A stretch of DNA of 64,000 nucleotides, from positions 2,170,001 through 2,234,000 of the forward strand of contig MU053758.1 of the NCBI GenBank assembly GCA_013239625.1, in the 5' to 3' direction. Positions 1,828-32,818 of this stretch are shown here, in pieces; position 1 is the first letter of the stretch; every line of letters starts with the position of its first letter. Origin of the DNA: Lama guanicoe (lineage: Eukaryota). Below the pieces are notes generated by a model. That model saw nothing but the letters and a program-made list of their open reading frames with translations, was not told the origin of the DNA and searched no databases. Made by a program: the position numbers and the translations under genes.

Positions 1828-1980
1828 GTTCACTGCATCAGCACTGAGTTCACTCCTCGGAAAAAAGGTGGAGAGAAAGGTGTCCCCTTCCGCCTCCAGA
1901 TCGACACTTTCAAGCCCAGTGACAAGGAACTTCCGCCCGAGCACCTGCATTCGGCTGGCTGCCTCATCAAGGTGTTTAAG
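1828..1980 (+). CDS. CP2-like exon (153 nt): [54 protein letters not shown]-binding domain
   Basis: Acceptor ttttccatctcag, donor gtacag; length and sequence match the 51-aa TFCP2 exon 6 as recalled. Confidence 0.93.
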
Positions 1981-4900
1981 GTACAGGCCGTACGAGAGGC
2001 CCATTTCGCTCCCTCTCAGGGCTCTCACCCTGCCTTGCTGGCTGTGTGGATCTTGCTCTGCTTTGCTATGGACCCTCAGCGTGCGGTCCCGTCTCTGGGA
2101 CTATTTCCTTCTCTGTACACAGAGGGATGGATCTCTTTCCTAGAGCCCCCTCCTGTAACGTAAAGAGGGGGCTTCTAAGGTTTCCTTGTCACTCTCCTGC
2201 AGCCTAAAGGAGCTGACCGGAAACTGAAAACTGACCGGGAGAAGATTGAGAAACAGCCCTTGCATGAGAGAGACAAGTATCAGACTGCCTGTGAGAGCAC
2301 AGTCTTCATGGAGGTGTGTGTGTGCTGGGTGACAGGGTGGGTGACGGGGTGGGAGGCGGTGCACAGACGGGAAGGTCTGGAGAAGAGACCCTCATAGTAC
2401 AAATGGGTAAACTGGTCCTCAGGAGCTGTGACTACCCTAGGATCATCACAGGCCCCCACTCCCACCCCAACCCCGTGATTCCACCTGTTTCCTGCAAGCA
2501 CAAATTGCATAGTCTGTTGCTCAAGACTTCCAGGAGCTGACTCTTTCCAGGCCACCTCACTTCTGCTCCCTCTGCCTGGAGCATCTCCCTTCCTGCTGTA
2601 GCTCCTCCAGGAAGCCTTTCCCACTCCCCTTGTAGACCTGCTGGCTAGTTCACTTTCTTCTTTGTGTGGAAATTCGGTCTAATTGTCAGGGACCAAGTTT
2701 GGCCCAAGGAGGCCCCTTGTCAGCTCCTAATAGATGGAGGAAGGTGAACCAAGAGCCACCACTGCCCCCAGAATGTCTAGGCTAACCTTGCTGTTTGTTT
2801 GCCCACAGTGTACACCATGGCCAGAGCCCAGTTTGGGGCCCCACCCGCCTCTGAGCCCTCTTGCTTTGACCTCCCCACACTCCTGCAAGCTCCTGTCCCC
2901 GGAAAGGTAAGGCAGGATCTCACCCCTTTGGGGTGAGAGTGAAGAGGAGAGCTCCTCAGCCCAGGCACTGAGGGAGGGGCAGTTCTGAGGGTGGAGCTGA
3001 GGCAGCTCCTGGGGTATCTGTGGGTGACAACGGGGAAGGGCTGGGGGCAGGAGGCTGGCTGCACTGCTCCACTGAGCCTGACTCTTCTGTTCCCCACAGG
3101 CTCTGCTCCTCACCACCATTCACCGTGGACACCTCGAGGGGCAGCCCAGCTCGGGTGAGTCTGCAACCCCTAACGAAGTGTTCCAGCCTTCTCAGCAGTT
3201 TCATCTCTTTCCAGAATAGAGTGGCCCTGCCCCCTGGTGGACAGACGTGGCATGGCCACAGAGCACAAAATGGCACTTCCCAGGGCAGGATGGGCCTCCC
3301 TATCACTTGGGACCCCCAAGGGTAGGGGCTGTTTCCCTTCTGCCTTGTTCTTAGTCCGTGGGTCTACAGTGTTCCTTGAACTGCTCTCTTTGTGCCTCAG
3401 GATCTGAACCCTGGAGCTTCCATCCTAGAGACGCAGCAATGGTTGCATCTGCACCGGTTCTCCAACTATTGCCGGATGCTGGCCAATTTCACTGGTGAGG
3501 CTGGGGTCTGGTAGGGACTGTAGGGGACTGAGGGCAGGACATTTAGGCAGGAAGCCTGTCTCTGTCCTGGTTTGTTGTGTGCCCTTCAACTTTTATTTAG
3601 AACTGTGAGTTGGCAAGCACTACGCTTGCTAGGTTTTCAGAGAGGTTAAATAACTTGCCCAAGGACACAGAGCTGGCAAGTGGCAGTGGTGGGATTTGAG
3701 TCCAAGTCTGACTCCGATGTTTGGCCATACTAGGGCTATTTGTAGATGTTGTACTGTATCCCTTGCCGCCCTTTACCCCAGACCTCTTCATTTAATCTGG
3801 CCCTGTCTCACTCTGCAGGCACTGATCTGCTGAAGCTTACCCGCCAGGACCTTATCCAGATCTGTGGGGCTGCTGATGGGATCCGCCTTTTCAACACTCT
3901 TAGAGCCAGGTGCTGGGCACTGCCAACCAGGGTCCCCTTCCTACTGCAGTGGCACTTACCAACTCAGCTGGCAGTTGTGTATCACTCAGTTTCTAGGAAT
4001 GGAGATCGAATTTTCTTATCTTCTCTCCTCCCAGGGTCCAGCGTTCATTAAATGCCTCAGAAAATGCTGGGTGGCCTCTCCCCCTAGAAACCTGGGAGAA
4101 GGCAGGGTCTCTCCCTGAGGGACGGGAGCTAAAACTGGGACCCGTCAGTTCAAGTATGAATGTAGACTATTTTCCTGGCCCAGGCCCATCCGTCACCGGC
4201 TGACCTTGTATGTTGCTCGGGAGGTCTCTAGGCAAGAGAACGAGGTTCCTAAGAACCCTGACTCAGGTGAGGTTCTGGCCTCTCCAGAAGACAAGAAACT
4301 CAGGTGGGGCTGCATGAAACCTCTTCCAGCCTGGGGAAGGGCGATGCTCCACCATTCCTGGGACCCAGGATGCTCTTGGCATTCCCATCTACCATGAGTA
4401 TATTAGTCCTCTCCTTCCAGGATGTCTCCCTGGGCTTACTTTTCCATGTTCCACACTCCCACCCCATCTGATTTTGTCATTAGTTTTAGTACATGGGATG
4501 AAAATACTATTATCCTGCCATTGAACTTGGGTTTCAATCATTCATATGGTGTCCCATCTCCTTGTTAAACTGGGGGTTCCCCTCAGCCTGAGGCCTCCCC
4601 AAATGTGAGGAATAGGAGTTGAAAATGAAGTGGATTTATAAGCCTTTCTCTTTCTTTACTCCTTCTCTCCACACCCCCATCCTCCCCATGAGGCTGCCAT
4701 CTTGCCCTCTCCTTCTGGTTCTGGTTCAGAGGGATCTGAACCCCACCAACCACTGACCCCTGCCCCTGTGCCGCCCACATCCCCAGGCTTTTATCAAGAG
4801 ATCTCTCTGGATGAACTCAGTGCTGTAGAACTCATGGGAAAATTGGCTGAGTTCCTGGCCCTCCCAGCCAATCAGATCCACCGTCTCTTCCACCAGGGCC

Positions 4901-5743
4901 CTGGGGGCATCCTCATTCTCCTCAGTGATCAGGTAAAAGGCCCCACAAAGGCCTGGATCACTCTTCCACCTCAGGCCCAGTCTCCTCCTCCCTGCCCTAG
5001 CTTATTCTGTTTGGCTCAAAGAACAGAATTGTCTTAGTAACGCTTTATCCCTTGCAGGTCATTCAGAATCTTAAGGATGAATCATACTTTGTGGCTGTGG
5101 TGAAGAAAGGTAGGGGTTTTAGAGGGAGAGGTGTGTCCGGCAAGCCCTAGAAAGGATAAGATTGTTTATATTGGCTCCTAAATGAGATTGAAAGATTCCA
5201 TGAAGGTGTGTGTGTGTGGATGCTTTGTCCCAATCAAGGGGTAAGTATCTTCTGAATGCTAGCTTTGTGTCAGAGGGGATAGATTCATAAAAGACAGCTA
5301 TTTACTGCTTAGGGAAAATGCAACTGAGTAAATGCATTCTCATGAGGGAAAAATACCCTAGTTTCTACATCAGGGAGTTTTATTAGCAGGAGAGGTAAGG
5401 ACTCTGCTCTCCCCTCCCCACTATTGTAAGGGCAGGTGCTTGTTAGACACCACCTGGAGCAGAGCACTTCTGATCAGTTGGCTTGTGGCCTGGTTATTCA
5501 GATGCCTGCCCTCTGTCCCTCCCCTTTGCTGCGGTACCCAGGGAGGCTTCCTAAAGAGCTAGATTCACGGTGGGGCAGAAGACCACTTGGATGTGGCAGA
5601 TGCACTACAAGCTGTTTGGAGGTTTGGGAGCAGCATAGTCATGGTCGTTGGGTTCCCACATCATCCCAATGGTGCCCCCCACTTTTTTTTTTTAACTGCT
5701 TTCAGTGCAGAATCCAGATGGGTACTACCTGGTTCTGACCTAG
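1828..5743 (+). CDS. Divergent CP2/LSF (TFCP2/UBP1/TFCP2L1)-family transcription factor, 3' part: 10 exons, 921 nt = 306 aa + TAG; 5' exons lie upstream of the window
   Basis: join(1828-1980,2203-2313,2809-2906,3100-3154,3401-3494,3819-3909,4184-4266,4787-4932,5058-5109,5706-5743). All introns are GT-AG, phases are consistent and there is no internal stop. Motifs [60 protein letters not shown] are diagnostic of the LSF subfamily. Confidence 0.93.
2203..2313 (+). CDS. CP2-like exon (111 nt): [37 protein letters not shown]
   Basis: Acceptor ctctcctgcag, donor gtgtgt; PKGADRK recognition-helix motif. Confidence 0.92.
2809..2906 (+). CDS. CP2-like exon (98 nt): [32 protein letters not shown](R), Pro/Ser linker
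   Basis: Acceptor tttgcccacag, donor gtaagg; starts with C(S/T)PWP as in LSF proteins. Confidence 0.88.
3100..3154 (+). CDS. CP2-like exon (55 nt): (R)[18 protein letters not shown]
   Basis: Acceptor ttccccacag, donor gtgagt; needed to restore the frame between the phase-2 and phase-0 neighbours. Confidence 0.82.
3227..3240 (-). promoter_or_regulatory. CTCF motif (CCACCAGGGGGCAG)
   Basis: Full match to the CCASYAGRKGGCRS core on the minus strand. Confidence 0.55.
3401..3494 (+). CDS. CP2-like exon (94 nt): [31 protein letters not shown](G), SAM-like domain N-half
   Basis: Acceptor tttgtgcctcag, donor gtgagg; QQWLH..RFS....NF motif. Confidence 0.92.
3819..3909 (+). CDS. CP2-like exon (91 nt): (G)[29 protein letters not shown](R), SAM-like domain C-half
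   Basis: Acceptor ctctgcag, donor gtgctg; conserved DLLKLT/ICG/DGIRLFN. Confidence 0.92.
4184..4266 (+). CDS. CP2-like exon (83 nt): (R)[27 protein letters not shown](G)
   Basis: Acceptor tttcctggcccag, donor gtgagg; RLT.YV motif. Confidence 0.88.
4787..4932 (+). CDS. CP2-like exon (146 nt): (G)[48 protein letters not shown]
   Basis: Acceptor catccccag, donor gtaaaa; resembles the LSF C-terminal Y..I.L.EL...EL..K.A ... QGP.GI..L.SD pattern. Confidence 0.9.
5058..5109 (+). CDS. CP2-like exon (52 nt): [17 protein letters not shown]
   Basis: Acceptor tcccttgcag, donor gtaggg; matches the penultimate LSF exon (IQN...E..F). Confidence 0.88.
5706..5743 (+). CDS. CP2-like terminal coding exon: [12 protein letters not shown]
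   Basis: T-rich tract then ctgctttcag acceptor; 12-aa tail aligns with the LSF ...ND.YHIILK* ending; TAG at 5741-5743. Confidence 0.85.
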
Positions 5744-6108: not shown

Positions 6109-6114
6109 ATTAAA
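6109..6114 (+). terminator. Candidate poly(A) signal (ATTAAA) of the CP2-like gene
   Basis: ATTAAA ~370 nt after the stop, followed by a U/GU-rich stretch (cttttcttttttgttagtttggg); a second ATTAAA at 6299-6304. Confidence 0.5.
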
Positions 6115-14662: not shown

Positions 14663-14770
14663 TCATAGGATGATGCAGCATCTGCAGAAGCGCTGTCTGC
14701 TGCCCCCTACTGATGGGGGTGGAGTGACAGGTGCGAAGTAGGCGTGGACTTTAATATTGGGTAAATGGGT
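14663..14770 (-). CDS. FBXL20: FBXL20 exon 15 coding part: [35 protein letters not shown] (CaaX)
   Basis: Acceptor ttgtttcag; TGA at 14665-14663. Confidence 0.96.
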   Translation of the reverse strand, partial: THLPNIKVHAYFAPVTPPPSVGGSRQRFCRCCIIL

Positions 14771-17700
14771 CTGAAACAAGACAAAAACATTACTAAGAGA
14801 TAGGGCTTAAACAGAATGAGCAACGTTGCTTTTCAGAAAAACCACTGAGGACTGAGTGGACATGAAGGCAGGGCAGACGCTAAGCACAGTCGGGATGTTG
14901 AGAGGCCTGGGTTCTACTTTGTACCATCCCAGGTTATTCTAAAAGACAAACTCAGTTCATGTAACTTTGGTACCTGCTTCCCTAATAATAAAAATTGGGG
15001 AAAAACTTCATGCTAATCTCTTAACCTGTCCCAAAGGGATTCCTAGTTGGATTCTCATAGTTGGAAGAAATTATATAAGCTTAAAATAGTAATTTTTTTC
15101 AAGCCACTGTGGCAATATTTCTTCTGACATTTTAAGAAACCTCATTAAATCCTCTTTTAACAACATGCTTCTAGATTTTACTACATAGTTCCTAAATTCC
15201 TACTATGTTCAAGACACTGTGCTAGTTATGCAAAAGGAGGTACAAGGATGGTCAAGATGGAGATCCTACTCTTAGGGAACTTACAGTCTAGACATGCACA
15301 CAAATAGCTAATAGAGTGGAAAAGTGCTAAGTGACTCTTGAGGATTCAGAGATGCAAGAGACTCCTGACAGCCAGGAAGGTCCAGGAACCCTAGTGTAAG
15401 CAGGCCACAGGCCATAGAACAGGCTCCAGTTGACCCATGGCTCTCCTTGTTTGGTGTAGAAGAAATATGGGTGCAAGGCCTCCCTCCCTTATGTTCTCAG
15501 TCCTCTCGGTCTGAAGTGAGAGGTAGAACTCAAGATGAAGTATGGTGTTCCTTCATGCACTCACATGCCATAAGGCCAACATGGATATTCTTAGAGGTTG
15601 GTTGTAAGGGCCAAACTAAGCACAGTAAATTTCCCACAGCAGGTGTGAAGCAGATGTTCCAAAAAATGTCTGTTGAGCTGAATAATCCGACACAGATTTA
15701 TCCAGCCTTTTATAATCTCCTTGCTGATAACCTGTCTTTCAGTTTTTTGGCTATAGGTGGGTCTCTTTATTATGAAGGATAGGGCAGAAAGAAAAGGTAA
15801 AAAACTACCTGATTCATTTGTTGCCTTAAAAAAAATAAGAACCCTAGCAAAAGAATCCGATATGAAAGGAAATACAAATTAAATTGTTAAATCTCATTTA
15901 ACTAAATATTTTCTTCATGTTATTCCTTTCTTTCCTTTAAAAACAAAATCTGGCATGTGCTTTTTTGATTCTAGGCATGTTATTAGAGAGACTGTTGGAA
16001 GGAGACCTACTTTTCTTCCCTTCAGTGTGTGTTTTCCTACTAAATTTCCATCTGGAAAAACAGGTAAAAACTATCTTCCCTTAGGCTTGCTCTCCATCTT
16101 TTTTTCTTTGCTGAATGTCCAGGTAAATTAAGTATCACAGAAAACTAAATTTAAAAAGAGGAAATGGAGGATAAAAGAAAAGAGAAAAGAAAAGAAAAGA
16201 AGGAAGGGGTGCTGAGAATTTAGAGCCAGAGGGTGATTCCACCGTCTTTACCCTGAGTCTCTTGATTCCAGCCCGTGTGATTTGCTGGCAGTCATAGAGT
16301 TCTATCCGCTCAAGGCTGTGACAGCTCTTCAAGTGCTCCAGGGATGCATCCGTGATTAGCGGGCAGTTGTCCAGTTCAATCACCTCCAGCTGGTCATGGG
16401 CGCAGGCCCCGTTCCCCAGGTGACGAATTCCATCGTCTGTGATCAGCTCACAGTGAGACAGACTCTGCAGCCAAATAGAGCAAGGAAGGACACTAAGCGC
16501 TAGATCCATGTGGTGAAATGAAGAAAGCAAACTAGAGTTGCTGGGGTTCTGCTTCTGACAATCAATGATAGACATTTCTGTGTGGGATTCTAAATATTTT
16601 TTGTGAATTCCTGTAATGATTATGAAATAGTTCATAAACAAAATACATTATCCCGCCCTACCCTCTCCATATACAAATTATTAACACTTTTCTTCTCTAC
16701 AGGGACAAGGGGGCTCAGGCTCTTCCTGTAAAAAATTTTCTGGAATTTGGACTATATACTGAATACCTGGTGCAGGGACACGCCCAAATAGTTAATTAAC
16801 TGAAAATTATTCTTTTAGCTTTAAGATGTGGTTGTTTCTTCACTTTACCAATTTTCCTTAAATCTCTGGTTCCTCCATGTGAAACTCAGTACCACTGACC
16901 CAAACATAGTTTAATGTGCCACCAAACACCAAAAATAAGCCTAGATACAGAACAGTCAACCAGAATGCTTTCCCACAGTGTTACTGGAAACAGTAGCAGA
17001 GAACTCCCCCTACTGAGGCCTGGATTGCTTCTGTTTTATAGGAATAGTTGGTCTCAATGTGAAGCAAACTGCATTTGGGGCCACCTTTTCTCTGGAAATT
17101 TAAGCATCGTTCAGGCTGGAGTGTAATTCATGTGGGAGGGAGAACTCATACTCTCCATGTCAGTTTTCAATCTCCAAGCACTGATACAGAAAATATTTAA
17201 CTTTTCCAGTTCCCATCTCAGTTTCTCCCTTCATGCAGGTCCTCCCTTGGCCCTCTGTAAGTTGGCAAATTGGAGAACATGCTTTCCCAAAACGGTAGCC
17301 AGATACTAAGAGGAAAGTAAGAGCTGTGTTTTGATTAAATCCAATAAACATAAAACTTTCAAAGTCAAACTCACCAATACTTGAAGTCGAGGACAGTGTA
17401 TAGAAAGTTGGATTAATGTGCTATCTGTTATCTGAAAGAAACATGTAAGTTTATTTTAGGGCTAATTCCAAAAAATTCATGGACCATACCTCATTCTTGA
17501 CTACACTTGTATTCTAGATTGATACCCTGATACCAATCATCAAATAGCAGAATCTTGCTTGCAATCCCATCAGCTACCTGAACCTATTCTTTGAGAGCCT
17601 ATCCAGGCTAGTCATCATCTTTGAGCAGGACTGTTGAAAATCCTGTTTGTTTTTGAAATAAATGAAAAGGTGCCCTCTATAACTTCTACCCACTGGACAT

Positions 17701-20700
17701 TGTTCAACCTCCTTAGAATCATCACAGAAATGAATCAGAAGACATTGCTCCATGAAAAAAATTAATGTAGAAACATCCTCGCATTTTTACATATTTGGCC
17801 CACATATATTTTTAAAATTTATTTATTTTTATTTAAATTTTGTTGGGGGGGGAAGGTAATTATCTAGCTTATTTTTTAATGGAGATACTGGGGATTGAAC
17901 CTGTGCATGCCAGGCATGCACTCTTGCCATTGAGCTATACCGTCCCCGCACTGGCGCATATTTTTATAAGCCATGCCACAACTCAGGATTGATAACCTGG
18001 ATGTCAGTTATTTTTCCCAAGGGTGGCAGAAAGAGGCTGCTGGGTTAACTATGAATATTCAGTAAGAAAGAACTCCTGAAGGAAGAATAGTCTTTTATAT
18101 TTATCTTAGGACGGAAAGTAAATCAGTGTTTCCCCCCAACCCCAAATTCATCTCTAACTCTGAGATGATTATTGTAATACACCTAGCTTCATAGGGGCTA
18201 AGAAATGACAGGGGGTGGGGACTGGAGTGGGCAGGCATGTGCACATCACTCAGAAGGACCAACACTAGAAAGGACACAGGACACCAGACATGTGCAAGAG
18301 ACAGATGTATGTGAACAGTTTTAGTTTAGTAAGAGCTAACAGGGGCTATAAGTAGTGTCCAGATAACAAGTAATTTGGAAAAATCGACCTCTATAGATAC
18401 TGAAGTATCTTCTCTTCTTTATTTTTACCATAACAAAAAATCCATTGTTCTATCTTCTTTTTAGGAGTCCCCATTTAAAGTTACTCCTCAATCAACTAAT
18501 AATCTCAAAGTTCTTCAAATTGGTAATAAAAGAAGTTGCTGATAAGGAGGCCAGTCTTCCTGCCTGAAGGGCAGGATTCCGTTGGGGCTCCAGGGCTAAT
18601 GATGTATGGGGTCTCAGGTCCAGTTAAGTTAAAAAGGAGCACTGATACCTATCAGTGTGCTAGGGCTTTAATTATTTACTAGCATTATAACCCTGTAGGT
18701 CTAAATAAATATCTTAACATCTTTATGGCCTGAATGCTTGGGCCTTCTTTCTTTCCAATGGCAACCTTATTGATGGCATGTATTTCCCAGATTCTTAGCA
18801 CAAGTACCACGGGCACCTCGGCTTGGTATGCCTGGAGGACACCTCAATAAATAGACAGTCAGCAGTGCTGCCAGGCTCTACACTACAGCAGGGCAAGGGA
18901 ATTGAACATTGTGATGTGCATGTATTATATAAATTTCTATCATACTGTATTTCTAAGTAAAAATCCACAATCTTACCTGAACACACTCTTCCAGGTCCAT
19001 CTTTTCAAGCTCATGGCAGTTCTATGAAATATAGACCCAAACATTATAGTACAAACATTTAAAACATGGGAAAAATTTAAGGCCAGAAAACTAAGTAGTA
19101 TTAGATATACTGGTGAATTCCAGAGAGCTTCACAGTTGGTGTCATTCTAGTATCACTTCCTGTCTTACTCCATTAATTACACATTTTAAAGGGCCTCTAT
19201 CACAGTGAAATTTCTCAATTATTCCACATTTAAAGTATCTAACATCTTACAAAGGATGTACGATGAATGAAAATGATTTCTTGGGAAGCAAAGGGAGAAT
19301 ACGCCCTCATCTATGCCATGTGCTGTGCCCCCCACACCCTCCCAATCGGTATTCCATCAATCTCCCTAAAAGCAAATGCCTTTTCCTATGTTCCATTACA
19401 CTAGTCAAAGATAGTATAATTTTAAATACATAATATATTATTATACAGTGATTTATAAACCACTCTAAATATTAAAATCTTTTGGAGAATATAGAAAATC
19501 TCTTAATACCTCTTCATTTAAAATCAGGCTTATATATTTCTTTCAACATTATTCTCATCCACCAGTTGCATACCAAGTAACCAAATAAGTTTCTTTCACA
19601 AAGCACTAGGAAATTCCTGCTTAGTTTAACATATCATCTTATGAAAATGTGGAAAATCAAGTCTCACGAAGGAGTGTCATGTTGTTCAATTCATGCCTTT
19701 CCAGAGCAGCTGTCTGTAGCTACAAGACAAGAACTCTCAGGAACACCAGCCACAGAAGAGTTCCCCAACATCCCACACACTCACTTCTACTGCCCTTCCA
19801 CATTTCCCTCACTCCTCATTCTTCTGAAATAAAAATCCTGAACAAAAAAACCCTTATAAAACCTGAAGAAAATACTTACCCTGGCCAGAGTGGTAAAGCC
19901 TACATCTGTTAGTTGAGAACACCTTGCCACTTCTAATATTCTGTTAAAAAAAACAAAGTGAAAGTCAACCCCTTGGTCCCTGAAAACTGGGTTTATTAAG
20001 ACAGCAAGAATTTAAGAAAACCTCCTATTCCCTAAGGACTGCATAACAGAGTGACATTCACAGCTAAGCAAGTCTGTATACAGATCTTGCCATTCATTTT
20101 CATGGAGTCATCATAAAGTGGTCCTGTAAATACCACATTTCAGGGTGATGCAATCAGAAGAATATAATAGAAGCTTGTAGTTAATGCCAAAATGCATGAG
20201 AAATGCATTTAAAAGCCTTCTTGATGGCATACTGCTTACCCCCAGAGGGCAGCCTGCTCCTAGAAAACAAAGGAAATGGAGATAAATACTCTGTTTCAGT
20301 TAATCTGTTGCTAAAGTAAATTATTCCCTTTTCCTATTTTACATGTACGATCATTCAGATTTAAACAGCTATTAAAAATGTTATGAGGGGACTGGTTAAT
20401 TACGGGTCTGTCCCAAATACGATATTCCATGCTTATGGAAAATACACCCTTAAGCTTCCTGCCTCCCCCGAAAGGCGCCCAAGGCAGGCCCAGTGGAGAG
20501 GGGAGCTGAGCTGGTAGCCACTCTCCTATTCAGGAACGGCTGAACACCAAGCTAAGTACCAACCACTACACTGGGGAATCAAAAGTAGTAGCTCTTTGCT
20601 ATGAAAAGTCCGGCGGTGTCTGCATGACAGTACCAAAGAATATTATGTTTGCTTACAAATTACTTCCTATAGAAGTTGAAAAAAAAATAAAGCTAAAATA

Positions 20701-23700
20701 TAAGAAATTATTATTAAGGGGCAATCAATTAGAATGAATGCAGTATCTAATGGGAAAGCATGATCTGACTAAACCCAAGTTTTAAGTATCACATTTGAGA
20801 GCCTTTCTATTCTTAGAACAAACCACAAAAGAGACTGGAGCTGAACACCCCTCTCTTTCAAACAGAAAAAGATTAATATGTAATATTTTTAGACAGAAGA
20901 CTGGCTACCTCCTTAGCTCCTGAATGGCACTCTACTCTAGGCTTCTGATAGTATTAATTTTGACTAACAAGTCTATGATATATTAAGGAATTTTGATACT
21001 GTGGGCAAATTTTCTTTCTATAATTAAGGTTGGGCCCATAGTCTCGTGATTACAAAAAAAGTTTTAAGCTTGCATCCTTGCTCCTGCACTTACTAACTGT
21101 GAGACCTTGAACAGGTTACTTGACCTTTCTGTGCTTCGGTTTTCTCATCTATAATATAGAGATAATAACAATGCTTATATAGTGTTATGATGATTAAATG
21201 AATTAATATTTGTAAAGCATTTAAAAAATGCTAACATGTCTAATATATAATAATATACAACATAAGTTTTGGTTTAAAAACAAAAAAAGGCAACCTCAAT
21301 TATCTCCCCCCCAAACCCCAAAAAGGTATATGGGGATAGTTTGCTGTGTGCTCTTACAGAATCAATATGAGTTTGATCCCATTTGCATGCAACATAGCAT
21401 TCTTAGTAAATATTTAGCCAATCCCATATTTAGGCAGAGAAGTGGGGCCACAGAGAAATAAAGCTTGCTTTAAAAGACCATCAAACAAAAAGAAAAAATT
21501 ATAAAATAAAAGACCATCAGCACAAGGGAGGTTCTCCTCCAGGGCTGTTTTTTCTCTTTAAATGCTTCCTGCTATGTACCTGGCATCATTACTACAATAT
21601 AAATGACAAGAGTGGGTCTTCAAAAACTTTCTTCAGAAAGGAATTATATAAAAGCATTATAAGAGAAAACACCTTTATTTCTTTTCTCAAGTAATGAAAT
21701 AAAATGTTGATATTTTTCTAGTATGGATAGCAAGATATAGAAAATGAGGACTATTACCCCTTGGTTCAGGCCAATTACATGTAATCAGATAAGGTGCAAA
21801 GCAAGTAGGTGGGCATCTGAAAGGGTAGGAGTAGCCTTAGAGTGTCTACCTTAAAAATTTCAAGGTTCCAAGGAGTAAGTGTGAGTGAAGGAGGCCTCTG
21901 TTCCTTTCCTCTGATTTTTTGAGATAAACAAGAAATGTTTACCTAAGCCGAGGGCAGTTCTGACCTAAAGCATTCAGGATGGCATCTGTGATGTTGGAGC
22001 AGCCAGAGGCACAGAGGGACTGTAACTTATGGCACCCTCTGCATATAGTAATGAGACCTTCATCTGTGATTTGCTAAAAAACAAGAGAAAAAAAATGCAT
22101 AGGCATTAGTAACTTAGCAGAAGACAAAGAAAAAAAGTTACCTTTGTGAGATAAGTGACAAAAAAAATAAAAGTAGATATCATATTAATCATGTAGCAGA
22201 TCTAAAAGAAAATGAACACACTCTTGTTTTTTTCTAGTTCTCATTGATTTTAGTTTGCAAGAGAACCTGTGCTCAATTTTGGTGCAAAGGGAAGAAGCTA
22301 AAATGGGGTTCTCTTAACCTAATGGGATGAACGGGACTGGGAACAGCATGTGGTACGTCACGGTGTAGGTACAATTAAATGATTTTGAACCCAGAAAACA
22401 GATAACAACAGCGGTATTTTAATAGTATAAACACATTTACAAGTTCAAAATCGATATTAAGTTCCTGAAAAAAAAAAAAAAGACAACCAGTGGATGATAA
22501 CTGTGATCTCAAATCAACCACAGATCCATTTATTCTATATTTTAGTTTTATAACATAAAGAATAGCATAATCTAATGGAGATAGTTGTGCCCAATTCAAA
22601 TATAATTCTGTATGTTTTAAATTATTTTAAAATGAAAAAAAGAACACAAAAAGATGTTACATTAAAAAAAAAGATATCAGCACTTTAATTTGTCCTGCTA
22701 AATTCACTAATTTTGTGGAAGTCTCAGAATAAAGCTTTCCTGTCATTTCTGTTTAATCAAACGCTATCCTCAGGTTGTAAGAACTGAAAAAAAATCACAC
22801 TTTAAATAATCACTGCTTAAATCAGTATTTTCTCAATATTGTAGAATTGAAACAAAATGCACATGAAAAATGGATGCTAAGGCAGATACAAAATCTGTCA
22901 TGAGAAAACACTGTTGAGGCATATATACATGTACAAGTACCTAAAAGGGGGATGTATGGTTATTACTAAACAAGGATACATGAAATTAAAAGGGAGAAGC
23001 AGCAATCCATAAACATGCATATTTAGGAGGCCAATGGAATTTGTGTCTCACACAATATTAGGAAAACATTGGGAGGGCTGTGCTGCCTTTACTTTCCTAA
23101 TGTTTTAAGGTCTATAAGGGATTACCGAAAAAGAAAGATGAAGAAAGTCATATTAACCAATAATTTAAATTTTTAAGAGTAAAATCTACTAAATTTTTTT
23201 ATGTTTTTAAATTACTCAAGAAAAAGAGACTGCATTAAGAATGTGCTTTGGCCACTTCAATAGTTTTGGGCAGAAGTCTCATGAATGTTGAGAATCATTT
23301 CATGACATTGTACAGAGTGACTGAAGAAACAACTCATGCCCTAAGATCTGGGTAAAGGTAAACAGTAAGATAAACATATGACAGAGCTGGTTCTTTACAC
23401 TTTCCAAGTGTGATTTCTGCCTGCTAGAAGAGTAAACGAAAGGAGCTAAAATGGCAAATGGCAGATACGCTATATATGTATTTATATATATGGGGTGAGT
23501 GTGAGATACAGAGTGCACGTGTTGAGTGTAAGTATATAAATAAAATCTGAACATGTGTCTATCACTGTAAGATGGTGGTGTCATGTTTACAATAGTTGTG
23601 TAAGCTCTTTCTTTTAGGCCAAATATTTCAGTTACATAAATGAAAGTAGAATCAGAATTAAAAGGAATATCATACCTTTAACTCAGTCTCTAGGAGCCTC

Positions 23701-26700
23701 TTAGATCACTAACAGCACTGTACGGGTAGGGGCTGGAAGAGCAGGTTGCTTAAACTGCATAAAATGTGGTCCTGTATGTATCACCTTTAAACTAAGCAAC
23801 TACTATGTTCTAAAGTTTCAGATGGCAAACAACAAGGGGAAAGTATAATAATCAGAAGGCTTAACATAAACAAGGAAAACCCTCACCAACTTTTTTCATT
23901 GCTACAAGAGGCTCTCACTCCAAGGCAACACACATGTAATTTTCAAGGCAAGAGAGAAAAGCTAAAGGTGTGCTGTCAGTGCTCTAGGATCCTGAATAGT
24001 TTCAGCCAGTTCTCTGAGCAAAATTCAGGGGCTTTGTGATAGACACAAAAAGCTGACAGTCTAAACGAGCCAAATGTGAAATACAAATACTACTCCAAAA
24101 ATAATTTAAAGGGGACATTTTGCTTATTGTCTGCTTAGATCAGCAGTTCCCTATGGCTCACTGATAGATTTTAATCACTGTAATTGCAATTAATTTACCA
24201 AAAATATTTTACTTTAAATACTGAAGTTTGTGAATAATTTTCTTCTAAAAAGTAGAGTTTTCTTATGTAGAAAAAGAAAGGGGTGGAGTTACAGTTTAGC
24301 TTATTTGCCTTCTGTATAAGCCACCCTCTATCTCATCCATGTCAAAGCCCTCATGAATGAGTATCGTTGAGCATGCAAAAAAATCGCTGGTCTTTACAAA
24401 GGACTAAAACTCTTACAATAATATTATTGAAATGAATTACTAATACAGAAGGAATGCTTACTAAGCAAGTCTGCAAGTTCAAAGTCACCAGTTCAGGACA
24501 GTGTGCACCTATGTACTTGAGAGCTTCATCTTCTAGCTAGAAAGATTAAAAAGAGAGAGAAAAAAATGATTACTGACATTGCTTTAAATCTTAAAAATTT
24601 AAGAATATACACATTCATGAATACGTTCTAGATATAGCCAACCAAGTTGTAAAGGAAGAATGAACTGGAAACAACGAACTATGATCATATAAACATGTAA
24701 TTCATATGACTGGAACAGTTATCAGTATTTGTTATCAATTCTGACCACATCAAATTCATCTATTACCAAATCAAGGAAATAAATATTGCCCAATGTTTGG
24801 ATTTTTCTTTTGATAAATTAAACATGCCTGACAGTATTTTGCTGAAGGATTTCGAAACTAAAATAACTTTCACATTTCTACACTCCCTGTAAAGTTTTTA
24901 AAAAACAAACTTTTGGGAGCAGGAGTTGATAAACGAATCCAAAGTTTATCTGCTCCAGGAAGATCAGTGCTATGTGTAGAGTGCCGAGAACAGATGGCAA
25001 GTAGTTGATTATAATGATGCAATCCAATCAATATTTTTCAGGATTCCATAAATAACGAGAAACTCAAGCTGTTGTTTTAAGGCAGCCATACTTTTAAAGC
25101 TCTGTTTCAAACAATGGAAACCCTTCCATCATGGAGAAACAATGAGGGCATTTTAAATAGAATCCAAGGCTTGGTTTTAGTAATCATTAATAAAATAAGG
25201 TAATAAGAGCCTAGCCCTACCTTGTCAGTCCTTCCTAAATCCACTCTTGATCATTTCCTTCCAGATGCTACCATGTCAATTCTTTTTTTTTTCCACCCCT
25301 GTGTAACACTGAGATATTAAAATTTTTAATAACAAAATATGTTGGATTTGTGATGTGACTGGAGGGAAATAAGCACCAACACTATAAAATGTAGGTTGCT
25401 GTATACTTGGCACATTTAAGAAAAACTCGGTGGTTAAACAACCAGTGGAAATTGCCAAGACTATCTTCCTTGCTTATCCAGTTCAAGGTCTCAGGCAGTG
25501 ACAACATGGCAAGTTTTCTTTTCAGATTAAATTGCATGAAACCCTTCTTGCCTATGGTGCCTGTTCAGCATGATTTTGTCTCCCCAGCTTGCCTCCTCTC
25601 AAAATTTTATCTTTGGTCAGGTGTTAATTCTTATATTTTTTTTACTCTAGAGAAAACACTTTAATTTTTCAGTAAGCATATGTCTTTGGTCAATAATGCA
25701 CAACAACTACATATCCCTCAAGCCAACATCTTGGGGCTGCCCACCAAGTTCATGGTTCCTCTATCATTCACAAGTGCAACATGGAGTATTACCTGTGTGC
25801 AGCCTTTTAAGAATAAGGCTTTCAGACCTCCACAGCCTCTCACTAGTGCTTGGATACCATCCTTGGTTACTTGGTCACACCAGGAAATGTTTAATTGCTC
25901 CAACAGTGGACATCCCTCACTTAGGATAAAACAAAGTGAAACAAACATATAACTAAATCCAATTCCAAAGGCACAAAAGTCTCATTTTATTGGCTATCTA
26001 GTCAGGGATTTACTCAATGTAGATTGAGAATATAGGCAATTCCACAACAAAAAAAAGTGCGTTTATCAATGTTTGTGGTGTTCACGTGGGACTACATCAC
26101 TAGGAGGGCTATCTCAAATCTAGCTTAACTAAGAAGCACAAGCACAATACTGTTTCTGATACATTAGATCATTATGGAGGTTTCTATTTTTCAAATCTGT
26201 TCTTTTTGCACTTAGATATTTAAAGGTCTCTAGATAGGAAATGGAAATAAAGTGACTTTTTCTAGTTAACAGAGTAATTAACAAAGAGTCAGATTCAAAT
26301 TCACTAAATCAATTACTTATCAGGTACTAAGAAGGACAAAAATGACAAAGGATCTGTAAATTTTCCTTTTCTGGGAAGTATCCAGAGGACAATTTCCACA
26401 GAAATTTAGGATACATGGTATCAGACCTCTGCCTTCTACCGAACACCAGCTTCATCTTTGATCTTCGATTTCACAGTCAAACTATGGAAGAATCCCAAGC
26501 TCTATGGCATTCTTTGGAAAATATTGCTTTAATTGTTTTATAAATTGAAGCCAGGGGAATCTTGGTTCAAGTTCATTTGTCAACATCAATATTGTGACTT
26601 CAGGCAAGTTACTACAGGAAGCCTGCCAATACCATGATTAGTCTGAGATTAGCCATAGCCCTTCTATGTTCTTCCCAAACTGATGTACACTTCTGTCACA

Positions 26701-29700
26701 GTACTTATCATGCTGTGTAGTGGTTTTTTGTTTTTTTTTTTCATCCACTAGACTCTGAGCAACTTATGGTTAGCAACCATACCTTATTCAGTTACCTCCT
26801 ACGGTTGAATAACGGTACCCGACATTAAAAAATGTTTTAGATTTTCTTATCTGTAAAGTGTCAGTCATATGTACCTCACAAGATTTTCAAATAAATGAGA
26901 ACATTTATGTGAATTACTTATAAACTATAAACATCGTTATACTATCTTACTTATTATCATATAAGGCAAACAGCCCAAGATACATGTATGTGTTCAATAT
27001 TCATAAGGAAGGTATAGAAGAAGCCACATTTTCAGATTACTTATACTAATTACACTTTTTCTTTTAATAGCTTAATTCTTACTATTCATAAATGCAACCA
27101 ATACATGGGACCATAATCATTTATAAAAGGCTGATAAAAAGGTAAAAGTACAAAGAAATTTCACTCTTCTTTTAAGATATATCTTTTGTGATATACTTTT
27201 AAAAGTACATTAACATTAAAACAATGAAAACTTACTGAGTGCTTACTATATACTAGGAACTCTGCTAAGTACTTCCTTCATGTATAAACTGTACTGTTCT
27301 GTTCAGAAATCCTAGTTACTTCTAGCCATTTCACCTGAATGTGCCCTGTAACTTGGGCAAGTGGTAAAACAAAAGATCTATTCTGAACTACAGCACAAAT
27401 CTATAAAACATCATTTCCTTTAAGTTCAACTTTATTTCAGTTATTAAAAAAACAGTTCTGATTATTGGACATTCTTGTTGTAAAAAATTTACCTTAGAGC
27501 TTTTAGAGACATGTTTGTTATCGATGTACAGGAAGCCAAGTCAAGGTGCCTGAGCTTGGAACAGAACTTGCTAAGGCTAGTACAAGTACTGAAAAATGGA
27601 AAGAGGGAAAATAATGAATAAACATACAGAACACATCCTTAGTATATTACACACAATTCCCATTAAACATATGTATATACATATAACAACTGTAAGATTT
27701 CCACATCCCAAATAAAAGCAGTTGCAAATCCAGGGACCTTTCATGCTGATGAAGAGGCAGGTTCACAAAGGATTTAAAAAAGAAAAAAACTTGTGTTGTG
27801 TATGAGAATTTGCATTAAGGGAAGATGGTGCTTGACTCACATTTGGAAATGTTAATAGCTACTGACAGCAAACTACATTTGTGCTGATAAGATACATGTA
27901 TTTTGCAAATCCAGGAACACCAGAAAAGCTAGCTAGTAACTGCTAGCAAGCGGTGAAACATGAAGACCAAAAGATGCGACTGCTCTTTCACTCCTATCTC
28001 TGCTCAGGATGACCTTTGCAAGGCAGTAATGAAAAAACTGAATTTTTGCAAAGTATACAGAGGATGGACAGTGTTGGGCTGAAATACATTATGTAATATT
28101 ACTGCCTGCTTTCCTTTATGAATTTCTTAAAGGCTCTTTTTCCACAGTGGTTGAGTTTCTCATTTAAAATTCTAATCCAAACAAGACCCATACATTCCAG
28201 TTGGCTGATATGTTTCTTAGGTCTTTGTGTGGACTTATGTTTTCAGTTCTTCTGGGTAGATGCCTCGGAGAATTGCTAGGTTCTATACTGAGCTTATATG
28301 TGACTTTTTAAGAAACTGCCAAACTGTTTTCTAAAGTTGCTGTACCATTTTACATTCCCACAGCAGTGCATGAAGGTCCCAGTTTTTCCACATCCTTGCC
28401 AACACTTGACATTGTCTCTTTTTGACTACAGTCATTTTAGTGGGTATGGAGTATAATCCTCTTGTGGTTTTATTTTATAATTTTGTAATGAACACTCTTT
28501 CTTATGCTTATTAGCCATTCATCACTTTCCTTGGTGAAATGTCTAAGTGCTTAGCCCAATTTTTAATTGGACTGCCTTATTACTAATTGTTAAGAGTTCT
28601 CTATCTTTTCTCAATATACATATTCTTTAATTTCTCTCAGTAATGTCTTGTGGTTTTCAGTATAGAAATTTGGCATTGTTTTAGGATTATGTTATCTGAA
28701 AATAAGGACAGTTTTACTTACTTCATTCCTATTGGTATGCTCTCTCTCTTTTAAAAACTATTGCATTAGATAGAATTTTCAATAAAATGTTGAATAGAAA
28801 TGACATGAGTTAATGTCCTTGCTTTGCTCTTGATCTTAGGGTAAGGCATTCAATCTTTCACTATTAAGTATGATGTTACCAATAGGTTTTTCATGGATGT
28901 CTTTGATCAGATCAAGGAAACTCCTTTCTACTCCTAGTTTGTTGAGAATTTTTATCACGAATGGGTGTTGGATATCTTCATGTGCTTTTTCTGTATCTAA
29001 TGATGTATTAGTTGTGTAACAAATTACCTCAAAACCAAGCAGCTTACAACAACAATTATTTATTATCTCAGTTTCCATGGGTCAAGAATTCAGGCACAGG
29101 CAGCTTAGCAGGGTGCCTCTGGCTCAGGGTTTCTGACAAGGCTACAGTCAAGGTACTGGTCATAGCTGCATTCATCTCCAAGTTTAAATGGGTATAGATT
29201 CCCTTCCAAGCTCATTCAGGTGGATGTTGGCAGGCCTCAGAAGATCCAATTCCAAGCTCACTCATTTGGTTTTTGGTAGGATTCAGGTTTGCTGGCTATA
29301 GACCAGAGCTCCCAGTTCCTTGTCACATGGGCCTCTCAACAGAGCTACTCACAACAGGGCAACTTGCCTCCCCCAGAGCTGGAGCCCTGAGAGAAAGTAG
29401 AGCAAGACAGAAGTCACAGTCTTGGTAACCTAATCTCCAAAGCGACATCCAATCTCTTCTGCAGTAGTCTATTGTTAGAAATGAGTCACTAAGTCCAGTC
29501 CACGCTCAAGAGGAAAAGATTACACAAGGGTGCAAATACGAGGAGGCAGGTATTACTTGGGGGTCACTGTGGAGGCTACCTATCACATTGAGATGATTGT
29601 GTGTTTTTTGTCCTTTATTCAGAGGACAGTAAATCTCACCAGCTTCCTACTTATTTATGGCTCACAAGTCAAGAATGGTGTTGACATTTTTAAATGGTTC

Positions 29701-32700
29701 AAAGAAAATCAAAAGATCCTATTTTGTGACATGTGAAAATTAAATGAAATTCAAATTTCACCACCATGCAATAAAGTTTTACTGGGGCACAGCCACATTC
29801 ATTTGTTTATGTATTATCTATGGCTACCTTTGTAAAACACTGGTAGGGTTGAGTAGCTGTCACAGAGACTATGTGGCCAACAAAGCCTAAAATATTTCCT
29901 TATCCAGCTTCATATAGAAAAAGTTTGCTGATTCTTGCTTTATTCTATTTATTATGAAATATTACATGAACTGACTTTCTATTCTTTTTTAAATTGAAGT
30001 ATAGTTGATTTTTTAAAAAATTTATTTATTCATTTAATGGAGGCACTGGGAGTTGAACCCAGGACCTTGTATACACTAAGCATGCATTCTACCACTGAGC
30101 TATACCCTCTCTCTGAAGTATAGTTGACTTACAGTGTTGTATTAGTTTCTGGTGTACAGTGCAGTGATTCAGTTACACATATTATTTTTCATTACAGGTT
30201 ACTCCAGGCTGCTGAATACAGCTCCCTGTTCTATAAAGCAGGACCTTGTTGTTTATCTATTCTGTACCTAGTAGTTTGTATCAGCCAATTTCAAATTACC
30301 AATTTATCCCTCCCTTCCCCTTTCTCCCACTGGTAACTGTAAGTTTATTTTCTGTTGATGAGTCTCCTGTTTTGTAAATAAGTTCCTTTGTGTCATTTTT
30401 TAAAGATTCCACATATAAGTGATATCATATGAAACCTGTCTTTCTCTCACTTACTTCACTTACTGTGATAATCTCTAGGTCCACCCATGTTGCTGCAAAT
30501 GACATTATTTCATTCCTTTTTATGGCCGAGTAGTGTTCCATTGTGTGTGTGTGTGTGCGCGCGCACGCTGTCAATGGACATTCAGGTTGATTCCATGTCT
30601 TGGCTATTGTAAAAAGTGCTGCTGTGGACACTGGGGTGCATGTGTCCTTCTGAATTTCTGAGTTTTCTCTGGATATATGCTCAGGAGTGGGATTGTGGGA
30701 TCATACAGTAACTATTTTTAGTTCTTCAAAACCTCCATACTGTTCATCATAGTGGCTGTACCAATTTACAATCTCACCAACGAACTGATTTTAGGATGCT
30801 AAACTACACTTGTATGTAATTTCTGGGATAAAACCCACTTGGTTATGATCCAAAACCTTTTTATATGTTGCTGGATTTGGTTTCCTAAGAGTTTGTTCAG
30901 TATTTTTGCACCTCTGTTCCTGACAGCAAATCAGTAGATTTCCTTTTATTGTGATGTCTCTAATTGGCTTTTGTATCAGAAAAATACCAGCCTCTTAGAA
31001 CAAGTCATGAAGTGTTTCTTCTTTTACTTTATCAATGAGTTTCAGGATTGGTATTAAATCTTCTTTAAATATATGATGGACTCACCAATGAAGCGATCTG
31101 GGCCTGGGCTTTTCTTTGTGGGACAATTTTGAATTACTCAGTGAATTTACTTGCTATACATCTATTCAGATGGTCTATTTTTTTCTTGAGTCAAATTTGG
31201 TAATTTGGGCCTTCCCAGGAATTTGCTCATTTCATCTAGGTCATCTGATTTGTCAGCATAAAGTTATTTATGATTTTCCATGATAATCATTTTATCTGTC
31301 TTTTGGCTCAAGTATTTAGTCCTCCCCTTCATTCCTGCTTTTGATAATTTGAGTCTTCTTTCTTATTTTCTTAGTCTATGTTTGTCAAGTCTTAATTTTT
31401 TCCCCAAAGAACCAGCTTTTGGTTTCATTGATTTTATTACTGTTTCTGTTGCCTATTTCATGATATCCAATTCAATCTGCACTTTTCCCCCTTCTTCTGT
31501 GTGCTCTGGACTTTGTCCTTCTTTTTCTAATTTCTTAATGTTGAAGATTGTTATTGATTTGAGCTTTCTTTCTTTCCTCTTTATTGATAGGAATGCAGAG
31601 CTATATCACTATCTTGGCTGCATCCCATAAATTCTGGTAACTTTTTATTTTCATTTAGCTCAAAATTATTTAGAAGCATTGATGCTTAACTTCCAGATAC
31701 TTGAGGTTTTTCCACATTTTGTTCTGTTGTGAATCTCTAGTTTAATTTTTACTTTTTTTAAAGTTATTTTCTTATAGTTTGCTAATGGATTACAATATGT
31801 ATCTTAACTTACCACAATGTATTTCAGAACAATAACCTGATTCTCCCAAAACATAAGCATTTTGCTACAATAGCTCATGGTTCCCTGCACTCTCCTTTAT
31901 GCTATTACTTTCAAGTGTTTAAATATATATTACTTCTATATATGATGTAGACCTAACAATATAGTGTTATGATTATTGCTTTATACAGGCTTTTATTTTC
32001 TCAAGAAGACAGGAGAGAATTAGTCTTAGATTTACCCACATATTTACTAATTTACATATTTACTAGCAATTCTGATTACTCTTCATTTATCAGTTCCTAT
32101 GTATTTGAGTTACTGTTTGGTATTTATTTTCTTTGGACCTGAAGAGCTTTCTTTAGTATTTTTTGCAAAGCACATTTACTCACAACAAATCCTCTCCATT
32201 TTTGTTTATCTGGGAAAATCATTATTTTGCTTTCATTTTTGAAGGATAGTTTTCTTTTCAGAATACTGAATACATCACATGGCTCTGGCTTCCACTGTTT
32301 CTGATTAGGTTACACGTTAATCATATATTCCTTTTTTATACATGAGTTATTTTCCTTTTGCTGCTTACAAAATCTTCTCTTTTAGTTTGGCTCTAGGTTT
32401 GGATATCTCTATCTTTAATCTTCCTGGGGTTACTGAACTTAGAGTTGTAGATTAATGTTTATCATCAAATTTGGAAGGTTTTCTACATCAATTCCTCATA
32501 TATATACACACACACACACACATATATAATAAAAAATATATATACATATATATACACATATATATTATATATATGTATGTGTGTGTGTATACATAAATTT
32601 TTTTTTTTTGCCCCTCTCTGTCTTGTCTGGGATTCCCATTTCATGTATGCTGGTACTCATAATGTTATTCCACAGATCTCTGAGGCTCTGCCCATTTTAC

Positions 32701-32784
32701 TTTAATCTTTTATCTTTCTGTTCTTCAGACTGGAAAATTTCTACAAATCTATCTTTAAGTTGATTTTATTTATTTACTTTTGTG

Positions 32785-32818
<34 letters not shown>

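Follow-up and report, generated by a model that had tools for sequence, protein, structure and literature searches.

Does the LSF/CP2 subfamily of transcription factors have a fourth member in vertebrates? The subfamily has been defined as TFCP2, TFCP2L1 and UBP1, with redundancy and heterodimerisation among these members being stressed (PMC6213935), and a table of the human family genes holds six entries (PMC6585022; papers are cited here by PMC number). The question is raised by a stretch of 64,000 nucleotides of guanaco (Lama guanicoe) DNA, G000:C1600:2170001-2234000, which we call the window. An earlier reading made from the letters of the window by themselves, hereafter the sequence-only reading, had recognized a divergent LSF-type gene at window positions 1828-5743, next to a gene of FBXL20 type. 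We examined the window together with 60 kb of upstream sequence, in which exons were located with the help of the database ortholog P0013. What the locus holds is a genuine fourth LSF/CP2 gene of tetrapods, one that is intact, under constraint and still without a name. The fuller reading, in which this intact fourth subfamily member would be an early-vertebrate ohnolog that was lost in some lineages and that has altered DNA binding, is in our judgment probably correct.

The locus is an intact fifteen-exon gene

Ten exons can be joined on the plus strand between 1828 and 5743, with AG before each of them and GT at all nine internal donors. Together they form 921 nt that encode 306 amino acids, contain no internal stop and end in TAG; the remaining two frames are broken by many stops. 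This is the stop-free frame that the sequence-only reading had described, and the peptide that it quoted, its exon sizes of 153, 111, 94, 91 and 52 nt and its 12-amino-acid tail were all recovered from the sequence. The tail, which is encoded by exon 15, is kept from marsupials to placentals. When exon 6, the first of the ten, was compared with the Pfam CP2 profile, it matched at E=2.6e-12 over profile positions 156-202 of 223. Given that this match begins in the middle of the profile, the start of the CP2 domain had to lie upstream of the window. Five further exons are situated there, 157 to 2161 bases ahead of the window start, and all of them are intact. The full gene has 15 exons and 14 introns, comprises 1434 nt of coding sequence for 477 amino acids, spans 7.9 kb and is free of stops and frameshifts.

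The exons were compared with those of the TFCP2, UBP1 and TFCP2L1 loci of the same genome. Exons 2, 4, 5, 6, 7, 10 and 11 agree in length and in AG..GT flanks with all three loci, which makes seven of the nine matched exons fully equal; exon 3 agrees at its acceptor only and exon 13 at its donor only. Exons 1, 8, 9, 12 and 14 have no match at the three canonical paralog loci, and exon 15 is too short for comparison. The sequence-only reading had called the structure TFCP2-like and had denied that the gene is a retrocopy, and it was right on both counts, because exon lengths and boundaries agree with those of the canonical, intron-bearing paralogs. Fourteen introns at family-conserved positions, along with the open frame, rule out a processed retrocopy or pseudogene.

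The encoded protein has the domains of an LSF factor. The CP2 domain (PF04516) is found at E=3.7e-51 in the alpaca ortholog P0013 and at E=4.7e-52 in the cat ortholog P0021. In the alpaca and cat orthologs, a SAM-like domain (PF18016, SAM_3) encoded by exons 10-11 scores E ~1e-17, over its curated cut-off, and a C-terminal oligomerisation region (PF25416, GRHL1_C) scores E ~1e-12, at 46-50 bits versus a cut-off of 27; TFCP2 reaches 82 bits for the latter. The solved DNA-binding domain of TFCP2, 8y7v, aligns over residues 53-268 with E=1.6e-105.

The product encoded in the window is 100% identical over 294 amino acids to the Vicugna pacos model P0013, which is labeled 'transcription factor CP2-like protein 1 isoform X1'. 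For the full product, 466 of 478 compared positions agree, and the mismatches are those of the read-through tail of P0013, in which the exon-14 donor is read through (window 5110-5150) to give a different tail of 13 amino acids. The alpaca model also has an 11-residue N-terminal extension from an in-frame ATG at C1600:2167806, 33 nt 5' of the conserved MLFWH start; in the orthologs of other species, MLFWH is the start. In camelids, exon 3 is without three residues that other mammals have there, reading NTKLGYATRLLK versus NPKLGDTTQWARLLK in cat, and the deletion is common to the Camelus ferus model.

The genome holds four LSF-type genes

A whole-genome scan with PF04516 found seven contig loci, including the new gene on C1600. 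TFCP2L1 is on C12516 (exons 93-95% identical to Mustela TFCP2L1), TFCP2 is on C8676 (exons 97-100% identical to guinea-pig TFCP2), and UBP1, found by an exon-wise search with cichlid UBP1 and then by tiling, is on C1007. The tiled paralog sequences consist of tblastn pieces, and their exon edges are rough. The three GRHL genes are on C55226, C3031 and C12520, with an exon-level identity of 45-54%. The three canonical genes, whose presence elsewhere in the genome the sequence-only reading had asked to be confirmed, are thus each found on separate contigs. The genome holds four LSF-type genes, and the new gene is the seventh gene of the Grainyhead/CP2 family. That it might be TFCP2L1 itself, as its database name would have it, is ruled out by the separate TFCP2L1 on C12516 and by the FBXL20-type neighbor at the present locus. 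Platypus and Gopherus species likewise possess both proteins, TFCP2L1 and that of the new gene.

Conservation and rate of change

The alpaca protein is 91.8% identical to that of cat and 90.8% identical to that of elephant (the range for cat, elephant and lemur is 90.5-91.8% over ~470 columns), and identity falls to 76.9% for opossum, 68.5% for tortoise and 61.3% for axolotl. It is 59-62% identical to its alpaca paralogs (62% for TFCP2L1, 59% for UBP1 and 58.7% for TFCP2). Alpaca TFCP2L1 and TFCP2 are ~81% identical to one another, and alpaca TFCP2 is 90.4% identical to that of Xenopus. Because fifteen open exons persist from amphibians to placentals, the comparison indicates purifying selection, although the gene has changed faster than TFCP2. 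From the shared node of the tree described below, the path is ~1.08 substitutions per site to the alpaca new gene and ~0.23 to alpaca TFCP2L1, an estimate that shows the new gene to have changed at roughly four to five times the rate of TFCP2L1.

These data bear on whether the frame could belong to a gene copy that is decaying or has no function in this genome, or could be an artefact of annotation. The read-through tail used by the alpaca database model and the damaged look of two platyrrhine models, Saimiri P0101 and Saguinus P0132, would suit such an explanation, which we nevertheless consider extremely improbable, for all 15 exons are open and have canonical splice sites, identity to cat and elephant is 91-92%, and the canonical tail is conserved. 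In addition, 311 amino acids of an ortholog, P0007, a multi-exon stretch, are encoded on a short database contig of 1,362 bases, and other short contigs are of the same kind; multi-exon stretches of this sort on short contigs call for RNA that was spliced in some mammal, or else for a retrocopy.

In three RNA-labeled runs, X1, X8 and X12, the contigs contain 0.21-0.37 of the sampled words of 1828-5743, a region of which the exon share is 0.235, and runs X13 and X14 contain small word shares. The runs with exon words carry a reproductive-tract label. No claim about splicing or expression rests on these values.

The new gene groups with TFCP2L1

Our careful tree, made from 27 rows and 464 columns under LG+C20+F+G4, shows the gene as the putative sister lineage of TFCP2L1. 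The new clade and TFCP2L1 are joined with a support of 100/99, and the new clade, amphibians included, has a support of 100/100 and a stem of 0.49. In the best trees it lies outside TFCP2, UBP1 and TFCP2L1, and it does not nest in any one paralog clade in the manner of a recent duplicate. A grouping of the new clade with UBP1 was rejected by the approximately unbiased (AU) test, with a log-likelihood difference (dlnL) of 43.9 and a p-AU of 0.0008. The AU tests were run on a 27-row subset of a 63-row set, and the 56-row result given below is that of a quick tree.

Early trees placed teleost tfcp2l1 beside the new clade, with a Shimodaira-Hasegawa-like approximate likelihood ratio test (SH-aLRT) support of 92 in one and of 97 in the other, the latter being the 56-row quick tree. 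Taken at face value, these two trees would make teleost 'tfcp2l1' the true ortholog of the new gene, with fish having kept the new copy and lost TFCP2L1, and common states such as EKI.K and the change to Arg in E.EKYQ would agree with this. The grouping dissolved once bichir, reedfish and gars were added. With polypterids, gars and basal teleosts included, the ray-finned TFCP2L1 proteins branch as their species do, and they group with tetrapod TFCP2L1 (support 69). Polypterid TFCP2L1 retains the ancestral states as well as a TFCP2L1-type EEPQLSPE stretch, and gar is intermediate, which argues that the shared states arose in parallel. The residue signature of the new gene, described in the following section, occurs in 0 of the 117 listed fish proteins, and gar Tfcp2l1 is reported to adjoin Gli2 (PMC9292287). 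We therefore reject the teleost grouping as a long-branch and parallel-change artefact and hold orthology of teleost tfcp2l1 to the new gene to be very improbable. The look-alike states themselves are gained stepwise from polypterids to gar to teleosts: Met to Ile in EKMEK, Lys to Arg in EKEKYQ, and PIFK to PFLK.

For the later trees, the poor fragments P0148, P0155, P0158, P0175, P0176, P0204 and P0239, present in both early trees, and P0213 and P0260, present in the 56-row tree only, were dropped and full-length fish proteins were substituted. A sturgeon row, P0407, was excluded from the larger trees; it is a 697-amino-acid Acipenser protein that is flagged 'UNVERIFIED_CONTAM' by its source, and it ranked high with the tfcp2l1 query yet is UBP1-like in the alignment.

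Five contact equivalents are retained and two otherwise invariant positions are changed

The residues with which GRHL1 contacts DNA have been listed (PMC5829564), and by alignment the equivalents of Arg427, Lys428, Lys386, Gly387 and Lys389 are retained in the new gene. A change is found within the CP2-specific insertion that the minor-groove loop carries: the otherwise invariant His of RKHGGEKG, present in all canonical members, is Asn, Lys or Gly in 22 of 22 new-clade rows. The guanaco codon is AAA (1864-1866), encoding Lys. A change is also found at the site of LSF Q234, where the guanaco codon is CTC (1963-1965), encoding Leu. Across the aligned rows, this site is Leu in 18 of 18 amniote members of the new clade, Gln in 4 of 4 amphibian members and Gln in 41 of 41 others. 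The double mutant Q234L/K236E of LSF has been reported to be dead in DNA binding and dominant-negative (PMC5829564).

Read together, these features predict a sequence-specific DNA-binding factor with the p53-like CP2 fold, which would oligomerise via its SAM-like and C-terminal domains. Mixed oligomers with other LSF proteins are probable, since these domains are kept and members of the subfamily are reported to heterodimerise (PMC6213935). The DNA-binding surface would be altered by the replacement of the loop His in all copies and by Leu at the Q234 site in all amniote copies. Because the equivalent of Lys236 is intact, DNA binding is likely to be altered in affinity or specificity, not lost. 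It is a doubtful further step, though one that the residues permit us to propose, that the amniote protein may be a natural 'Q234L-type' member that, within mixed oligomers, chiefly modulates its LSF partners, either by a partial dominant-negative effect or by switching specificity. If that were true, human, mouse and other gene-losing species would run their LSF network without a modulating layer. The parallel substitutions in the tfcp2l1 of teleosts, which have no such partner, give a hint that TFCP2L1 might assume part of the modulator role there.

Orthologs are kept across tetrapods

Three protein listings were used: the best 120 of 1163 matches to exon 6, the best 120 of 2306 matches to a tortoise DNA-binding domain, and the best 120 matches to Labeo tfcp2l1. 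All 120 of the exon 6 matches are the new gene, down to 82% identity. At the loop and Q234 sites, 104 of them read Lys/Leu and 9 read Asn/Leu, 7 have one site unread, and the canonical His/Gln occurs in none. Among these matches are carnivores, bats, cetartiodactyls, perissodactyls, pangolin, eulipotyphlans, afrotherians, tree shrew, colugo, lemurs, one squirrel monkey, marsupials and monotremes; rodent, lagomorph, catarrhine and xenarthran proteins are not among these best 120 of 1163. The tortoise query adds turtles, crocodile, squamates, tuatara and many birds, as well as four amphibian proteins (two salamanders and two caecilians). Its 110 new proteins comprise 54 with the amniote signature, 4 with the amphibian one (Asn/Gln) and 52 with canonical His/Gln. 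The Labeo query lists 117 new fish proteins, including those of gars, bichir and reedfish, and the loop/Leu signature is in none of them.

Orthologs are kept in amphibians, reptiles, birds, monotremes, marsupials and most placental orders. The sequence-only reading had the gene 'kept in this lineage', and it is indeed present and intact here; what does not hold is that this lineage is special, since the gene is kept across tetrapods. These listings lead us to infer that human and mouse no longer have the gene and, more widely, that it was lost in ray-finned fishes, Glires and catarrhine primates. That it was 'possibly lost' in human and mouse had also been suggested by the sequence-only reading, and the absence of Glires and catarrhine proteins among the matches listed agrees with this.

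The only anthropoid models among the matches listed are the platyrrhine Saimiri P0101 and Saguinus P0132. In P0101, 13 conserved residues are gone from the best-conserved strand of the DNA-binding domain and the C-terminal tail is foreign; P0132 has a branch length of 0.82. Damaged models such as these fit a decay of the gene in anthropoid primates.

Paired synteny and the age of the gene

The new gene and its FBXL20-type neighbor are convergent, with stop codons ~8.9 kb apart. When two of the FBXL20-type exons were compared with the genome, strong paralog matches occurred only on C1007, in plus orientation at 219.8 and 230.1 kb. UBP1 occupies the minus strand of that contig between 275833 and 237420, tail-to-tail with the FBXL2-type gene, an arrangement that the sequence-only reading had anticipated and that is confirmed in this genome. 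Two convergent pairs of an LSF gene and an FBXL2/20-type gene therefore exist, one consisting of the new gene and the FBXL20-type gene and the other of UBP1 and the FBXL2-type gene. FBXL2 and FBXL20 both exist in fish. Given that the new gene is not UBP1-like (p-AU 0.0008), the pair was not recently copied as a block, and it is very unlikely that a lone TFCP2L1 copy reached the exactly mirrored position by chance. The mirrored tail-to-tail arrangement favors an ancient block duplication of the kind produced by two rounds of whole-genome duplication (2R). Thus, the gene is most likely an ancient ohnolog, with its whole-genome-duplication age resting on paralogous synteny. In the history that we propose, an LSF gene and an FBXL2/20-type gene would have formed a convergent pair in the ancestor. 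The early-vertebrate duplications would have multiplied this pair, which would survive at two of four loci, as UBP1/FBXL2-type and as new gene/FBXL20-type; the new copy would later have been lost in ray-finned fishes, Glires and catarrhine primates.

Several points weigh against this reading. In the careful tree, tetrapod and ray-finned fish TFCP2L1 are joined with a support of 82/70 only, and the AU test does not reject a grouping of the new clade with tetrapod TFCP2L1 alone (dlnL 1.18, p-AU 0.219), which means that the tree cannot date the duplication. Orthologs from shark, coelacanth, lungfish and ray-finned fish are absent among the matches listed (three listings, best 120 each), which is weak evidence. 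That the neighbor would be FBXL20 rather than FBXL2 follows the human protein, and the two names rest on one PDB match together with this background. Loss in human and mouse is deduced from the protein listings along with papers that count six human family members. Finally, with regard to altered DNA binding, the published dead mutant is changed at Lys236 as well, a residue whose equivalent is intact in the new gene.

The first of these points would also suit a functional gene that is no 2R ohnolog, namely a copy of TFCP2L1 that dates from the sarcopterygian or tetrapod stem and whose sequence then changed rapidly. The AU test keeps that grouping (p=0.219), orthologs among the matches listed are from tetrapods only, the MLFWH.QPEH N-terminus is common to the new gene and TFCP2L1, and the long stem of 0.49 could artificially expel the new clade from TFCP2L1. 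Such a copy, however, must have landed convergently beside FBXL20, the sole paralog of the gene that is convergent with UBP1, and a copying of the UBP1-FBXL2 block is excluded by the rejection of the grouping with UBP1 (p=0.0008). Moreover, the best trees place the new clade outside TFCP2L1 of tetrapods plus fish, and spotted gar Tfcp2l1 is reported to adjoin Gli2, which is the TFCP2L1 position (PMC9292287). We regard a stem duplication as unlikely and retain the early-vertebrate ohnolog as the preferred reading. The fourth whole-genome-duplication copy of the sequence-only reading accordingly fares well on paralogous synteny and less well on the tree, where a tetrapod-stem split is not rejected, and on distribution, where no non-tetrapod ortholog is among the matches listed.

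Names and significance

In the database, orthologs are labeled 'CP2-like protein 1', 'upstream-binding protein 1(-like)', 'UBP1-like' or 'alpha-globin transcription factor CP2', or carry no label; the first of these is the automatic label that the sequence-only reading had guessed. A search of full-text literature, with subscription journals and gene-tree databases lying outside it, found no fourth LSF gene that has been named or characterized, and an Atlas search returned family-level clusters only. TFCP2L2, L3 and L4 are other names for GRHL1, 2 and 3 (PMC7471608), so that TFCP2L2 does not denote the present gene. The single 'Tfcp2l2' in PMC3791366 is an error for Tfcp2l1. The lack of a proper name and of a study of the gene is probably explained by its apparent absence from human and mouse.

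The gene adds a fourth constrained member to the subfamily in dogs, cats, pigs, cattle, sheep, horses, camelids, bats, marsupials, birds and reptiles. Because database names are shared, work on 'TFCP2L1' or 'UBP1' in gene-bearing species can target the wrong gene, and knock-out and redundancy results from mouse need not apply where four members are present. Copies that naturally have Leu in place of the Gln of Q234 provide a ready-made experiment on DNA recognition by LSF. More generally, the locus offers a clean case of an ancient paralog that was hidden because the two main model mammals appear to have lost it.

Coordinates and neighboring features

Features of the new LSF-type gene and of the adjoining FBXL20-type gene; positions are those of the window unless they are preceded by C1600.
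Feature	Position	Strand	Remarks
Exon 1	C1600:2167839-2167921	+	upstream of window, AG/GT borders
Exon 2	C1600:2168414-2168565	+	upstream of window, AG/GT borders
Exon 3	C1600:2168703-2168767	+	upstream of window, AG/GT borders
Exon 4	C1600:2169523-2169628	+	upstream of window, AG/GT borders
Exon 5	C1600:2169737-2169843	+	upstream of window, AG/GT borders
Exon 6 of 15	1828-1980	+	153 nt; C-terminal part of CP2 DNA-binding domain
Exon 7	2203-2313	+	111 nt; end of CP2 domain, with recognition-helix stretch
Exon 8	2809-2906	+	98 nt; Pro/Ser-rich linker
Exon 9	3100-3154	+	55 nt; linker
Exon 10	3401-3494	+	94 nt; SAM-like domain, first half
Exon 11	3819-3909	+	91 nt; SAM-like domain, second half
Exon 12	4184-4266	+	83 nt; GRHL1_C-like C-terminal domain begins
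Exon 13, optional extension	4730-4786	+	57 nt in frame, upstream AG acceptor, +19 amino acids; used in Camelus ferus model P0012
Exon 13	4787-4932	+	146 nt; C-terminal domain
Exon 14	5058-5109	+	52 nt
Exon 15	5706-5743	+	38 nt; 12 amino acids and TAG
ATTAAA polyadenylation-like signal	6109-6114	+	first after stop codon; consensus match only
FBXL20-type gene, last coding exon open frame	14663-14806	-	ends ...RFCRCCIIL, then stop
FBXL20-type gene, penultimate leucine-rich-repeat exon	16255-16470	-	PDB FBXL2 (6o60_C), E=7e-46; paralog C1007:230085-230297, 75% identical
FBXL20-type gene, leucine-rich-repeat exon	27492-27587	-	paralog C1007:219759-219854, 75% identical

The coding exons of the FBXL20-type gene, an F-box/LRR gene for which FBXL2 is the best solved relative, occupy 14663-27638 of the window on the minus strand, and its C-terminal CIIL is CaaX-like. 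A simple pattern search of the window found no F-box exon for this gene, and its 5' part probably lies beyond 64000. Within its introns, the window is A+T-rich from 28000 to 38000 (G+C 0.30-0.37, AT skew -0.12 to -0.26), a stretch that may be a repeat insertion.

Comparison with known family members

The closest paralog of the new gene is TFCP2L1 (CRTR-1, LBP-9), with which it shares three Pfam domains, exon boundaries and the MLFWH.QPEH N-terminus. The two differ in locus (C12516 versus C1600) and are 62% identical within alpaca. TFCP2L1 has Gli2 and Clasp1 as neighbors (PMC9292287), whereas an FBXL20-type gene is beside the new gene. Further differences are that the Pro-rich N-terminal stretch is longer in the new gene and that its protein has another residue in place of the loop His and carries Leu at the Q234 site.

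UBP1 (LBP-1a/b) resembles the new gene in its convergent FBXL2/20-type neighbor, its domains and its exon structure, but it is not the sister lineage (p-AU 0.0008) and its identity is 59%. The N-terminal exon of UBP1, like that of TFCP2, is unlike the one found in the new gene and TFCP2L1. With TFCP2 (LSF, CP2c), the new gene has in common the recognition helix and the loop contacts, which are retained in the alignment to 8y7v. In contrast to TFCP2, to which it is 58.7% identical, the amniote new gene naturally has Leu at Q234, which is half of the double change in the dead mutant.

The more distant GRHL1-3 share the CP2 DNA-binding fold (PDB 5mpf and 5mr7, E ~1e-21 to 1e-24) and a GRHL1_C-like C-terminal domain with the new gene. 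They differ from it in exon identity, at 45-54%, and in having their loci elsewhere, and the SAM-like domain, which is absent from GRHL proteins, marks the LSF branch (PMC2873413), to which the new gene belongs as its fourth member.

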